Shown here piece by piece: positions 29,938-58,300 of a stretch of DNA of 64,000 nt. The position numbers were made by a program, and so were the translations under genes. The stretch is from sequence record MH051917. One strand, written 5' to 3'. The notes below the pieces were generated by a model that saw nothing but the letters and a program-made list of their open reading frames with translations, was not told the DNA's origin and ran no database searches. Source of the stretch: Enterobacteria phage vB_EcoM_IME341. Numbering within the stretch: the first letter of the stretch is position 1; each line of letters begins with the position of its first letter.

Positions 29938-29959
29938 TATAAATATAGTTATATTTATA
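29938..29959. promoter_or_regulatory. Divergent late promoters: TATAAATA (+) for inh/hoc and TATTTATA (= TATAAATA on the minus strand) for uvsW
   Basis: TATAAATA at 29938-29945 on the plus strand; TATTTATA at 29952-29959. Confidence 0.65.
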
Positions 29960-30660: not shown

Positions 30661-32079
30661 ATGGCTTATACCGTAGCTATTGCTCCTTTGGCGGCTACGG
30701 CCGTTATTGGAGCAACAACCAATTTCACTGCAACCGGCTCTGGCGCTGCAGCTGAAGGTGTTGAATCATTTGTATGGACTGTTGATGGCGTTCCACAATC
30801 TTCTGTGACTGCAGCAATGGCTTATGTCGCTGTTGGTCCGGCAGGCAGTAAGACTATTAAAGTTGTTGCAACCACCACTCCGGCAGACGGTGAACCGGAA
30901 ACTGCTGAGGCTGAGACAACTTTAACTGTCCAGAATAAACCAATGCCTGCTATTACATTGACTTTGGACCCTACTTCGGTTTCTAAAGAAGTTGGCCAAT
31001 CTCAAGTTGTTACTGCTAACGTGACGGGCGCGCCTGCCGGTGCAACAATTGCTTATGTTTGGAAACGTAACACTAGTGTAATCTCTGGACAAACTGGTAA
31101 AACTATTACCGTAACCGAAGCGGCAGCAGCAAATTACACTTTAAACTGTGAAGTCACCGTTACTGCACCTGATTATACTTCAGCTACCGCTACTAAAGGT
31201 GCTGCGGTAACTTTTGTTAAGAAAACTATATCAGGTGTTTCTGTTACTTTAACGCCCGCCTCAATTAGTACAGAGAAAGACTCACCTGCACAGTTTAAAG
31301 CGGATGTAGTCGGCGCCCCTTCCGGTGTAAATGCAACTTATTCTTGGAAGAAAAACGGTTCTATTATTCCAGGCGAAAGCAGTAATATTCTTGCTGTTGA
31401 TACGTCTACAATAGGTTCTTACTCTATTGAAGTTTCGGTAGTCCTAACAGGTACGGATTATAATGATTTAACTGTTACCAAAACAGGAAGTGTAACAATT
31501 ACTAAAAAGACTATGGCGGGTGTTTCCGTTAATTTAACGCCTGCTTCTATTACTGTCTCTGAAGGAACCCCAGCTTCTTTTAAAGCCACAGTAGCCGGTG
31601 CGCCTAGTGGTGCTACTTTTGCCTATTCTTGGAAGAAAGACGGTTCACCTGTTGTGGGTACTACAGATACATTAGTAATTGACACAAGCGCCGAAGGTTC
31701 ACAGGTTATTGAAGTTTCTGCTGTTGTTTCGGCGACCGATTATAATCCAGTGACAGTCAAAAAAACAGGTAATGTAACAATTACGGCTAAAGTAGCTCCT
31801 GAACCAGAGGGCGAACTACCTTACGTTCATCCGCTACCAGTTCGTAATTCAGCTTATATTTGGTGTGGTTGGTGGGTTATGGATGAAATCCAGAAAATGA
31901 CTCTTGAAGGCAAAGACTGGAAAACTGACGAACCTGATAGTGAATATTATCTCCATCGTTATACCCTTCAAAAAATGGTAGCCGATTATCCTGAGGTTGA
32001 TTTACAGGAATCTCGTAATGGTAGAATTATTCACAGAACCGCTTTGGATGCTGGAATTATTTACGATTACGTTTATTAA
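30661..32079 (+). CDS. hoc: Hoc, outer capsid decoration protein with tandem Ig-like domains
   Basis: 472 aa; T4 Hoc-like N-terminus and highly similar C-terminal capsid-binding region (AKVAPEPEGELPYVHPLP.R.SAYIWCGWWVMDEIQKMT.EGKDWKTD); about four Ig-like repeats versus three remembered for T4 (376 aa). Confidence 0.92.
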   Translation: MAYTVAIAPLAATAVIGATTNFTATGSGAAAEGVESFVWTVDGVPQSSVTAAMAYVAVGPAGSKTIKVVATTTPADGEPETAEAETTLTVQNKPMPAITLTLDPTSVSKEVGQSQVVTANVTGAPAGATIAYVWKRNTSVISGQTGKTITVTEAAAANYTLNCEVTVTAPDYTSATATKGAAVTFVKKTISGVSVTLTPASISTEKDSPAQFKADVVGAPSGVNATYSWKKNGSIIPGESSNILAVDTSTIGSYSIEVSVVLTGTDYNDLTVTKTGSVTITKKTMAGVSVNLTPASITVSEGTPASFKATVAGAPSGATFAYSWKKDGSPVVGTTDTLVIDTSAEGSQVIEVSAVVSATDYNPVTVKKTGNVTITAKVAPEPEGELPYVHPLPVRNSAYIWCGWWVMDEIQKMTLEGKDWKTDEPDSEYYLHRYTLQKMVADYPEVDLQESRNGRIIHRTALDAGIIYDYVY

Positions 32080-32083
32080 TAAA

Positions 32084-32108
32084 GGGCCTTGCGGCCCTTA
32101 TTTAGTTT
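32084..32108 (+). terminator. Rho-independent terminator after hoc
   Basis: GGGCC-TTGC-GGCCC hairpin followed by TTATTTAGTTT; the same hairpin sequence recurs at 58281. Confidence 0.7.
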
Positions 32109-32161
32109 ATGATATTTTAGGAGATTAAGTTATTGACGAATAATTTTTAATAGGTGAATAT

Positions 32162-32341
32162 ATGAAATTTAACAAATATATATGGGTGTTGATTTTCTTT
32201 ATAGTGCTATTTTTGTTTTCGTTAATTTCATTAACTAGTGTGATGTTTGCTTCTATATTGGCTCTTTTCACCTGCATTAGTTCCTTTTTTGGGATAATAG
32301 CTACTATAGATAAAATTTTACGTACCAAAAAGGGCCCTTAG
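32162..32341 (+). CDS. Small membrane protein (59 aa, two predicted transmembrane segments), not in the ORF track
   Basis: AGGTGA Shine-Dalgarno before ATG; MKFNKYIWVLIFFIVLFLFSLISLTSVMFASILALFTCISSFFGIIATIDKILRTKKGP; flanked by GC hairpins on both sides. Confidence 0.45.
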   Translation: MKFNKYIWVLIFFIVLFLFSLISLTSVMFASILALFTCISSFFGIIATIDKILRTKKGP

Positions 32342-32346
32342 GCCCT
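32332..32346. other. GC hairpin after the small membrane-peptide ORF
   Basis: GGGCCC-TTA-GGCCC with an A-run on the 5' side; its orientation suggests termination of antisense transcription or a stability element. Confidence 0.4.
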
Positions 32347-32441
32347 TCCCTAAAAGCTTGCTTTATAATTCACGCCCATAACTTTGAGAAGAACCCAGCA
32401 TAGTGAGCCTAAGGTGCTACTTGTCCTACCATGAATCTCCT

Positions 32442-32472
32442 GTTTACAAGTTAAAATTCTCATGTTACTATT
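32442..32472 (+). promoter_or_regulatory. Early promoter-like element
   Basis: GTTTAC-N19-TACTAT upstream of ORF 32500. Confidence 0.5.
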
Positions 32473-32499
32473 GAATAGTCAAATCACAAGAGAATTGTT

Positions 32500-32712
32500 A
32501 TGGATAAGATTAAAGTACATTTTTTACATGAATCAGGTATGAATTTTATTGATATTGCTAAAAAGATTGGCGGAACTGCCAGAGATATGGCTAAAGCTTG
32601 GGCCGAAGTTGAGAATGCTAAGGCCAAGTTTAAAGCAAGAGAGAAAGTCGTATATCGTAAAAGATTAAACAACAAAAAGGTCAGCGCAAAGCGCGTTTTT
32701 GGTCCAAAGTAA
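32500..32712 (+). CDS. Small basic protein with a possible helix-turn-helix
   Basis: 70 aa; early-type promoter upstream (GTTTAC at about 32442); the segment GMNFIDIAKKIGGTARDMAKAW has an HTH-like pattern; lysine/arginine-rich C-terminus. Confidence 0.5.
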   Translation: MDKIKVHFLHESGMNFIDIAKKIGGTARDMAKAWAEVENAKAKFKAREKVVYRKRLNNKKVSAKRVFGPK

Positions 32713-32826
32713 TATGCTTTAAATTTAGGTGTGTTATAATGGGTCTAGGTCCTTCCGTTAAACCATTTGGCTTGGTGACAGAAGAATACTAGCTCTTCTA
32801 TTTAATTATATTTATTATGGTGATTT

Positions 32827-33195
32827 ATGCCGCTTCTTAAAAAGAGAAATGGTGCCACCCGTCAGGTCTTCCTGACGAAACGATACGCCATCAAAATACC
32901 CAGTTTCTATAGTTGGAAATTGTTTTTAACTGGATTATGTTGTAATATAACAGAACATGAGTTTACATCTTTGAATGACTCGTATTTGTGCCCTGTTATA
33001 TGGAAATCTTGGTTAGGACTCGTTATAGTTATGCCAAGAGCTAAAGAAGTTACTAATATCGGGTTGTGGAAAACAGAAATACACCATGCTAGGCACCACA
33101 CTCTGGTAGAAAGCCTGTATATGTCTGATTGCAAGCCTTCAAATTATGGTTACCTTAAAGGTAAATTGGTTAAAATTGATTATGGAAGCAAATAA
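32827..33195 (+). CDS. Hypothetical protein with protein-kinase-like motifs (truncated kinase-like fold)
   Basis: 122 aa; YAIK (beta-3 lysine-like), DCKPSN (catalytic-loop-like D-x-K-P-x-N) and KIDYG (DFG-like) in kinase order; stop abuts the rnlB start. Confidence 0.5.
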
Positions 33196-33196
33196 T

Positions 33197-34204
33197 ATGT
33201 TCAAGAAATATAGCAGTCTCGAAAACCATTACAACAGTAAGTTTATCGAAAAACTCCGTACTAATGGTTTGACTGGTGGTGAATGGGTAGCACGTGAGAA
33301 GATTCATGGGACCAACTTTAGTTTAATCATAGAACGTGACGCAGTCACATGCGCCAAGCGCACTGGCCCTATCCTCCCTGCTGAAGATTTCTATGGCTAT
33401 GAAATTGTACTCAAGAACTATGCTGATTCTATTAAATCTGTTCAACATCTAATTGAATCGATTAATTACCAGTCGTACCAGATTTATGGTGAATTCGCTG
33501 GGCCAGGTATCCAGAAGAATGTGGACTACGGTGATAAAGACTTTTATGTGTTCGATATCCGAGTTACTAAGGAAGATGGTTCAGAATCTGTTCTAACCGA
33601 TACATTGATGGAAGCCTTCTGTATTATCCATAAGTTTAAGGTAGCTCCATGTCTGGCTACAGGTAGCTTTGAAGACCTTATTAAATTACCTAATGACTTT
33701 GATTCAGTTATTCCTGATTATAATTTTGCGGTGGATAACGCTGGCCTAACTATTGCAAACTCGACAGACTTTATTCCTAAGGTAGAAGGTAAAGTATTCA
33801 CGGCTGAAGGCTTTGTACTTAAACCTGATATTCCTACCTGGCTTCCAAACGGAAATCGTGTAGCGATTAAATGTAAGAACTCTAAATTCAGCGAGAAGAA
33901 AAAGTCTGATAAGCCTATTAAGGCTGCGGTAGTTTTATCCCAAGATGATATGGATTTGCTGTGGCAATTCACTGATTATGTGACAGTTAACCGTATCAAT
34001 AACGTTATTAGTAAGATTGGCGAAGTATCACCTAAAGATTTTGGAAAGGTAATGGGCTTGACGGTCCAAGATATCCTTGAAGAAGCTGCCCGTGAAGAAT
34101 TGGAATTAACTGACGCTGAAAATCCTGTTGAAGTTAAAAAGCAGCTCATTGAGTGCGTAAAAGAAACATTAAGACATGTTTGGATTGAACTAGTATCCAA
34201 ATAA
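33197..34204 (+). CDS. rnlB: RNA ligase 2 (RnlB)
   Basis: From the internal Met [20 protein letters not shown]...: near-identical to T4 Rnl2 ([15 protein letters not shown] lysine-adenylation motif, [23 protein letters not shown]). Confidence 0.95.
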
Positions 34205-58280: not shown

Positions 58281-58300
58281 GGGCCTTGCGGCCCTTTTTA
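58281..58300. other. GC hairpin between gene 8 and gene 9
   Basis: GGGCC-TTGC-GGCCC (identical to the hoc terminator stem) with a T-run on the plus-strand side. Confidence 0.55.

Follow-up and report, generated by a model that had tools for sequence, protein, structure and literature searches.

T4-type phages carry ORFans in hyperplastic genome regions, flanked by units that combine a stem-loop with an early promoter (promoter early stem-loops, PeSLs); genes are gained, lost or exchanged by recombination between such units, and where one phage has a cassette its relatives have a single PeSL (PMC2839356; PMC4122927). The locus described here lies between hoc and rnlB of Enterobacteria phage vB_EcoM_IME341 (record MH051917), of which a stretch of 64,000 nucleotides (nt), called the window below, was analyzed. 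Its subject is ORF59, an open reading frame (ORF) of 59 amino acids (aa) that follows hoc on the plus strand (Table 1). Our analysis supports, with moderate confidence, the view that ORF59 is a genuine lineage-restricted orphan, a weakly constrained gene for a small membrane peptide linked to hoc; the locus around it appears to have been reshuffled in the manner that the PeSL papers describe.

The region at 32084-32826 belongs to a Dhakavirus, a T4-type coliphage like JS98 and JS10, and falls in its inh-hoc-24.3-rnlB-gene 24 segment; gene names were taken from annotated relatives (CLB_P2, dhabil, JS10, IME08, and JS98). The DNA around ORF59 is 87-94% identical to that of JS10, IME08, JS98, NC-G, and about 40 more Dhakaviruses, and no record in the phage collection covers at least 80% of 32000-33250, the exact gene arrangement being absent there. 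An initial annotation had described this range as a hairpin-bracketed mini-island in which a small membrane peptide and a DNA-binding protein might form an exclusion, lysis-timing or toxin-like module. It placed a very hydrophobic 59-aa ORF at 32162-32341 between two GC hairpins, where we find it.

When 50,697 phage records were searched at the DNA level and by tblastn, ORF59 homologues turned up only in dhaeg, dhabil, CLB_P2 (two records), and Ec2-ASingh, with identities of 91-93% (nt) and 86-88% (aa); these five are among about 72 records with a Dhakavirus-type gp24.3 (at least 80% identity). These phages (the CLB_P2 group) share one arrangement, in which hoc(+) is followed by hairpin 1, ORF59(+), hairpin 2, reversed hoc2, a reversed 501-aa gene, an early promoter, and gp24.3, and the Shine-Dalgarno sequence (SD) of ORF59 is kept as AGGTGG. 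One further copy lies on a Sequence Read Archive (SRA) contig (Logan SRR5831616_3345, here L008), which was found among fetched contigs encoding gp24.3 variants; 19 further Logan/ENA loci around such variants (L009-L027) held no additional copies. Across the relatives' loci compared, ORF59 tracks hoc and not gp24.3, and hoc, a late gene, is directly upstream of it in every ORF59 locus.

The L008 homologue encodes 57 aa (75% aa identity), and its 87% nt identity is limited to the counterpart of window positions 32145-32331, that is, to the SD and the ORF. The ORF begins 3 nt past the stop codon of a hoc-like gene in an operon-like arrangement, with that stop inside AGGTGA. Hairpin 1 is absent upstream, and downstream a different terminator (GAGGGC-TTCG-GCCCTC) is followed by the conserved early promoter and gp24.3. 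The hoc-like gene upstream is Ig-rich and encodes 944 aa, its C-terminal capsid-binding domain being 42% identical to window Hoc over 74 aa. Since the homology covers the SD and ORF only, while hoc allele and terminator differ, the conserved unit is the ribosome-binding site (RBS) plus ORF, present downstream of two hoc alleles that differ greatly; it may travel as a minimal module directly downstream of hoc. This block is the strongest argument for ORF59 as a gene, one probably co-expressed with the late gene hoc.

The coding evidence is moderate. When 32100-32347 was dinucleotide-shuffled 5000 times, 0.4% of the shuffles contained an ATG-initiated ORF of at least 59 codons; a canonical SD stands at the right distance from the start, and T occupies 53% of the second codon positions. 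All five other ORF59 sequences are intact, with no frameshift or indel; 171-177 nt are indel-free across four distinct sequences, whereas the leader carries a 3-nt indel. The plus frame holds more synonymous changes than any other frame, and the amino acid changes are mostly hydrophobic-for-hydrophobic. The synonymous-codon score of ORF59 (0.036) is reached by 2.6% of off-frame chunks and is close to that of ORF122, an accepted accessory gene downstream of gp24.3.

Several results weigh against a coding ORF59. Omega (the ratio of non-synonymous to synonymous rates) is 0.63 against CLB_P2 (3 synonymous and 7 non-synonymous changes) and 0.45 against L008 (8 and 15; P = 0.086 against neutrality); at P of about 0.09 or more on 10-23 substitutions, neutrality is not rejected. 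Neighboring genes lie at 0.02-0.25, with inh and rnlB at 0.02-0.10, and constraint on ORF59 as strong as on those two is unlikely. Neither a late promoter (TATAAATA) nor a good sigma-70 promoter was found for ORF59: 32100-32161 holds no site with at least 9/12 matches, and transcription from the best candidate (TTGACG-17 nt-GAATAT, 8/12) would start inside the ORF. In the window and in the CLB_P2 group, ORF59 lies between terminators facing both ways, a transcriptionally quiet place. Codon-usage scoring gives no separation between ORF59 and the antisense frame, and ORF59 is missing from every deposited annotation and automatic gene prediction in the searched collections. No candidate appeared in a word-indexed search of 5.8 billion proteins; HMMER on 1.84 billion representative proteins returned a junk tandem-repeat translation as its sole match; and none was found in IMG/VR (peptide pattern and two exact DNA words), in the JGI metagenomes (peptide pattern and one DNA word), or in Escherichia coli genomes and plasmids. 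Comparison with Pfam, PHROGs, and PADLOC gave noise only (no Pfam or PHROG match below E 0.07), and a literature search on CLB_P2 and Dhakaviruses found no expression data.

Much of this would also fit a stretch between the hairpins that is non-coding or a decaying leftover, in which both long ORFs are untranslated by-products of T-rich sequence: omega is not significantly below 1, promoters were not found, the position is enclosed by terminators, protein and metagenome searches and gene callers return nothing, and the distribution is very narrow. We consider this possible, although doubtful. An ORF of this length is improbable for its composition and follows a well-placed SD, the L008 homology coincides with SD and ORF while both flanks differ, indels are confined to the leader among the sequences compared, and replacements keep hydrophobicity. 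A lineage-restricted gene is thus the reading that we prefer; it would mean one more small membrane-peptide gene, so far unannotated, in Dhakavirus genomes, with modest practical consequences.

The predicted product is an inner-membrane peptide with a GRAVY (grand average of hydropathy) of 1.38, in which residues 6-49 form one unbroken hydrophobic stretch. The two transmembrane helices that the initial annotation predicted correspond to two segments with negative insertion free energy, about -4.6 kcal/mol for residues 7-25 and about -1.0 for residues 28-46, the second being marginal (19-residue segments on the Hessa scale). Both insertion-competent segments are kept in all three ORF59 variants. 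Because both ends are basic (MKFNK at the N-terminus, DKILRTKKGP at the C-terminus), the positive-inside rule predicts an N-in/C-in topology; the peptide would then have two transmembrane helices with a tight turn between them and both basic ends in the cytoplasm. A lipoprotein or a protein with a cleaved signal peptide was considered and dropped, there being no lipobox and the hydrophobic region being too long.

The opposite strand carries a 67-aa ORF with a TTG start (ORF67), which the initial annotation had judged spurious and the plus-strand ORF the better candidate. ORF67 could conceivably be the real gene and ORF59 its shadow: no stop interrupts it in any of the four sequence variants, it has a codon score similar to that of ORF59, and has been annotated once (CLB_P2 OL770107.1, 148173-148376, corresponding to L001:4049-4252 on the minus strand; UNI73280.1, hypothetical protein, RASTtk). 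We regard this as highly improbable, and the earlier judgment holds. The start abuts hairpin 2, no SD precedes it, its only internal ATG is lost in L008, and there the frame would run antisense into the hoc-like gene. Omega in the ORF67 frame equals or exceeds that of the plus frame in five of six comparisons, and the translation is not membrane-like, with a low-complexity, N/I/K-rich composition. A stop in the ORF67 frame needs a plus-strand codon starting with TA or CA (Tyr, His, Gln). Since each ORF59 variant has one such codon, against five in ORF67, the ORF67 frame would stay open automatically, and the reverse does not apply. ORF67 is best read as a shadow of ORF59 and not as a gene. A 37-aa ORF is annotated across hairpin 1 in dhabil; this entry and the CLB_P2 ORF67 are probably annotation errors. 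Public records thus omit ORF59 or, in CLB_P2, annotate the wrong strand.

Both hairpins of the initial annotation exist, and a search of 31900-33300 against Rfam gave no RNA family at E ≤ 1. Like T4-type late-gene intrinsic terminators, both have 7-bp G/C-rich stems, 4-nt loops, and adjacent T-runs, hairpin 1 being followed by a T-rich tail. Hairpin 2 differs from such terminators in that it overlaps the last four ORF59 codons, encoding the last residues, with the TAG stop in its loop, and in that it has lost its plus-strand T-run, apparently by deletion. In the window its U-tract lies on the minus strand only (…GGGCCCTTTTTGG), the one strand on which it is a good terminator, whereas in the CLB_P2 group T-runs on both sides make it a bidirectional terminator between ORF59 and the reversed hoc2.

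The two hairpins are near copies of one element: AAAGGGCC-N4-GGCCCTT occurs at 32081-32099 and 32329-32347 with 84% identity overall and identical stems (15/15 bases). The motif GGGCCNNNNGGCCC has three copies in the window, against 0.38 expected by chance. The third, an exact copy of the hairpin-1 stem-loop (GGGCCTTGCGGCCC), lies at 58281-58294 between two minus-strand ORFs (286 and 335 aa), and on the plus strand its stem is followed by a T-run (…GGCCCTTTTTAG). Because this copy is a terminator in an unrelated place, the GGGCC-N4-GGCCC stem-loop is a generic terminator of this phage. Hairpin 1 has the loop TTGC in the window and the reverse-complementary loop GCAA in the CLB_P2 group, as if the palindromic stem had allowed the loop to flip. 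We conclude that the hairpins are ordinary intrinsic terminators and recombination joints, not island boundaries. They serve as the neighbors' terminators, and L008 has the ORF without hairpin 1, both of which speak against a bracketed mini-island. The elements reported within 32084-32826 are present, with the corrections that hairpin 2 overlaps the last ORF59 codons and has its U-tract on the minus strand only, and that the same range also contains an 86-nt gene remnant.

That remnant points to a deletion. Homology of the window to the CLB_P2 group ends exactly after hairpin 2, and window positions 32323-32418 are 82-83% identical (blastn E 3e-20) to a stretch inside the reversed 501-aa gene (L001/L002/L006/L007:6445-6541) that opens with a hairpin-2-like sequence, TACCTAAATGGGCCAACGCGCCTTCCCTA. 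Because the spacer matches the inside of this gene and homology breaks off after hairpin 2, the window phage appears to descend from a CLB_P2-like arrangement from which hoc2 and the greater part of the 501-aa gene were deleted; the supposed mini-island would be what the deletion left behind. The full reversed gene to which the scar corresponds occupies L001/L002/L006/L007:5150-6655. In the scheme that we propose, hairpin 1 ends hoc, and hairpin 2 would once have been a terminator shared with the converging cassette of reversed hoc2 and 501-aa gene; recombination at or beside hairpin 2 would have removed the cassette and left the remnant, and a second small deletion would have taken place before the gp24.3 promoter. 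The stem-loops and the early promoter would thus be the joints at which the hoc-rnlB region is reshuffled.

In its architecture the locus comes nearest to PeSL cassettes. ORF59 is an ORFan in a hyperplastic region with two near-identical G/C stem-loop terminators on its flanks; in IME08, a relative, one stem-loop stands where the ORF59 unit would be; and rearrangement breakpoints fall at the stem-loop and the early promoter. JS98 and IME08 each carry a single hoc stem-loop at the hairpin 1 position. In JS98 the gp24.3 early promoter follows it by about 25 nt, a textbook PeSL. Between hoc and hoc2, IME08 has one stem-loop, JS10 a gap of 44 nt only, and the CLB_P2 group the two stem-loops with ORF59 between them. 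The ORF59 unit differs from a PeSL cassette in three respects: no convincing early promoter comes after the stem-loop on the hoc side of ORF59, making the unit a degraded or half PeSL at best; in L008 the ORF has no stem-loop before it; and the element is known from a single locus, with no sign of mobility. For these reasons (no early promoter for ORF59, no stem-loop in L008, one locus) we did not class it as a PeSL cassette.

The gap between hoc and gp24.3 is a very plastic spot across relatives, with differing reversed cargo of surface-protein-like genes. IME08 has hoc2 alone; JS10, L015-L021, and L026 have hoc2 with a tail-fiber-like or collagen-repeat gene; and JS98, L009-L013, and L025 have no reversed genes there. 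The Hoc-like protein of L008 (944 aa, L008:2918-5752) has several Ig-like repeats and is about twice the size of window Hoc (472 aa), JS98 Hoc having about 280 aa, and a further 545-aa gene stands between inh and this gene in L008. The hoc-rnlB region offers a clean worked example of remodeling in which terminator stem-loops and an early promoter are the joints: hoc alleles are swapped, the reversed hoc2/collagen-like cassette is gained or lost, and a deletion leaves a scar. The case as a whole is routine accessory-gene variation and does not overturn current understanding.

The 70-aa protein encoded beyond the remnant is gp24.3. It matches Pfam DUF2774 (PF11242) with 102 bits (cut-off 29.2; E 2e-29; 61 of 63 profile positions) and phrog_1566 with E 1e-32, and it is a plain member of its family, with nothing materially different. 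Tblastn finds gp24.3 in 1082 phage records, from Tequatrovirus, Dhakavirus, and Mosigvirus to T4-like phages of Klebsiella, Yersinia, and Serratia, the named ones annotated gp24.3; its position between hoc and rnlB is that of gene 24.3 in RB14, RB51, and RB69-type phages. Homology to T4 24.2/24.3, proposed earlier as a comparison, therefore exists for the 70-aa ORF but was not found for ORF59. Omega against CLB_P2 is 0.12, a clear constraint.

The earlier description of gp24.3 as basic and helix-turn-helix (HTH)-like agrees with its pI of 10.4 (19 Lys and Arg residues) and, as a prediction, with its AlphaFold2 model (pLDDT 84; helices 3-11, 16-23, and 27-67), a three-helix fold whose HTH can be superposed on known domains. 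Foldseek E-values are not significant, and every top match is an HTH domain. The protein is probably a sigma-region-4/LuxR-like HTH protein, which may bind DNA or RNA polymerase. No paper on DUF2774 was found in the literature, and a PDB sequence search with gp24.3 gave no match; the HTH prediction is a testable lead for a gene of more than 1000 phage genomes. An early-type promoter after ORF59 had also been reported and is confirmed: TTTACA (32443-32448) and TG-n-TACTAT (32463-32471) are invariant in six Dhakavirus loci. This promoter lies 95 nt from hairpin 2 and serves gp24.3.

Joining ORF59 and gp24.3 into one accessory module, a membrane effector with a DNA-binding regulator acting in exclusion, lysis timing or toxicity, was suggested in the initial annotation. 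The two genes are adjacent in the window and in L008, and the predicted fold of the 70-aa protein is an HTH. On a distant T4-like metagenome contig (L027:2088-2279), a 63-aa two-helix membrane ORF overlaps the start of a gp24.3-like gene by 8 nt, an isolated instance in which a membrane peptide is truly coupled with gp24.3; this ORF is not homologous to ORF59. We consider such a module very unlikely, because ORF59 and gp24.3 stand 2.4 kb apart in dhaeg, dhabil, CLB_P2, and Ec2-ASingh, with genes of opposite orientation in between, and because ORF59 occurs in 5 of about 72 records. The mismatch with the 1082 records of gp24.3, the transcription signals that set the two genes apart (a terminator followed by the conserved early promoter), and the adjacency in the window, itself apparently a product of deletion, point the same way. 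Gene 24.3 is thus best seen as an early gene in its own right, widely conserved, driven by its own promoter, and functionally unconnected to ORF59.

ORF59, in contrast, would be made late. A perfect late-promoter motif (TATAAATA) stands at 29938, upstream of inh-hoc, and we infer that ORF59 is expressed from the inh-hoc late transcript. L008 has no intervening terminator, and late expression there would be direct; in the window phage, transcription would first have to read through hairpin 1, the hoc terminator, which is of moderate strength.

Among the small membrane proteins of phages, the class II holins or pinholins (phage 21 S68) and T4 Imm have two helices, and T4-type phages already have holin T with RI/RIII. 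ORF59 resembles the class II holins and Imm in shape only: in size, in its two predicted hydrophobic helices, the second of them marginal, in its predicted N-in/C-in topology, and in its basic C-terminal tail. It differs from both in having no sequence or profile similarity to them in Pfam, PHROGs or PADLOC, where T4 Imm/Sp-type exclusion proteins likewise gave no profile match. Unlike a class II holin gene, it is not beside an endolysin or any other lysis gene (its neighbors are hoc, gp24.3, and rnlB) and has no dual-start motif; unlike imm, it has no early promoter upstream and follows a late gene.

Our best guess, from the inferred late co-expression and the holin-like shape, is that ORF59 encodes a dispensable late membrane modulator of lysis timing or late exclusion under weak constraint. 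A stronger version, in which ORF59 founds a family of hoc-coupled late two-helix membrane peptides with a real role (lysis timing or inhibition, or a late block to superinfection), or is a de novo gene born in the hoc 3' region, seems unlikely; if true, it would give a tractable example of T4-type phages gaining and losing tiny membrane effectors at terminator joints.

A killing peptide, holin-like or of a type I toxin-antitoxin-like system with an antisense RNA ending at the flanking terminators, would suit a small, very hydrophobic product with a basic C-terminus, and termination on the minus strand is possible at both hairpins. Against it, the type I toxins known so far have a single helix, whereas two are predicted here, and no promoter is predicted inside the unit on either strand (minus strand scanned over 32100-32350). 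The lack of a Pfam, PHROG, PADLOC or Rfam family match, the absence of adjacent lysis genes, and the missing left hairpin in L008 further make this account very improbable.

Table 1. Positions in the window, strands, and basis of assignment for the features of the hoc-rnlB region
Feature	Position	Strand	Basis
hoc, head outer capsid protein, 472 aa	30661..32079	+	ORF; synteny with annotated hoc in CLB_P2, dhabil, JS10, IME08, JS98
Hairpin 1, hoc intrinsic terminator, AAGGGCC-TTGC-GGCCCTT then ATTTAGTTTA	32082..32099	+	Terminator scan; fold -12.7 kcal/mol
Antisense 67-aa TTG ORF (ORF67), shadow frame	32125..32328	-	Wobble positions shared with ORF59; no SD
SD of ORF59, AGGTGA	32152..32157	+	4 nt upstream of ATG; sequence
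ORF59, orphan 59-aa predicted two-helix inner-membrane peptide	32162..32341	+	ATG ORF, hydropathy, insertion free energy
Hairpin 2, AAGGGCC-CTTA-GGCCCTT	32330..32347	.	Fold -11.9 kcal/mol; terminator scan
Remnant of reversed 501-aa gene, 5' part, 86 nt	32348..32433	-	blastn match to CLB_P2-group gene
Early-type promoter of gp24.3, GTTTACA, 17-nt spacer, TG-n-TACTAT	32442..32471	+	Promoter scan; conserved block
gp24.3 homologue (DUF2774), 70 aa, basic, predicted sigma-4/LuxR-like HTH and long basic helix	32500..32712	+	Profile match
ORF122, 122-aa mini protein-kinase-like gene between gp24.3 and rnlB	32827..33195	+	phrog_4301; no Pfam match

ORF122 lies outside the 32084-32826 range and is the more unusual gene. 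Its motifs are those of a protein kinase (a beta3 Lys in AIK, an alphaC Glu, a catalytic D..N in SDCKPSN, and a DFG-like DYG), and K23, E43, D101, N106, and D118 are invariant across nine homologues. In a Foldseek search with its AlphaFold2 model (pLDDT 87), the top 50 matches were all kinase domains (TTK/MPS1; best E 2e-4, probability 1.00); a PDB sequence search gave no match. Because the chain ends three residues past DYG, we read it as too short to hold the activation loop and the subsequent C-lobe helices found in complete kinase domains. By tblastn, JS10 and NC-G are the only other Dhakaviruses with ORF122, and homologues with 30-50% identity are found in jumbo phages (the 121Q/PBECO4 group and phages of Erwinia, Aeromonas, and Ralstonia). 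A link of ORF122 or ORF59 to the genes at equivalent positions in L027 was dropped, as they are not homologous.

A candidate middle-mode promoter lies on the plus strand at 32715-32740, just past the gp24.3 stop and upstream of ORF122. It comprises a putative MotA box (TGCTTTA, 32715-32721), a 13-nt spacer, and an extended -10 element (TGTTATAAT, 32732-32740), recognized partly by eye. A second TGCTTTA is present at 32359-32365, inside the remnant of the 501-aa gene.

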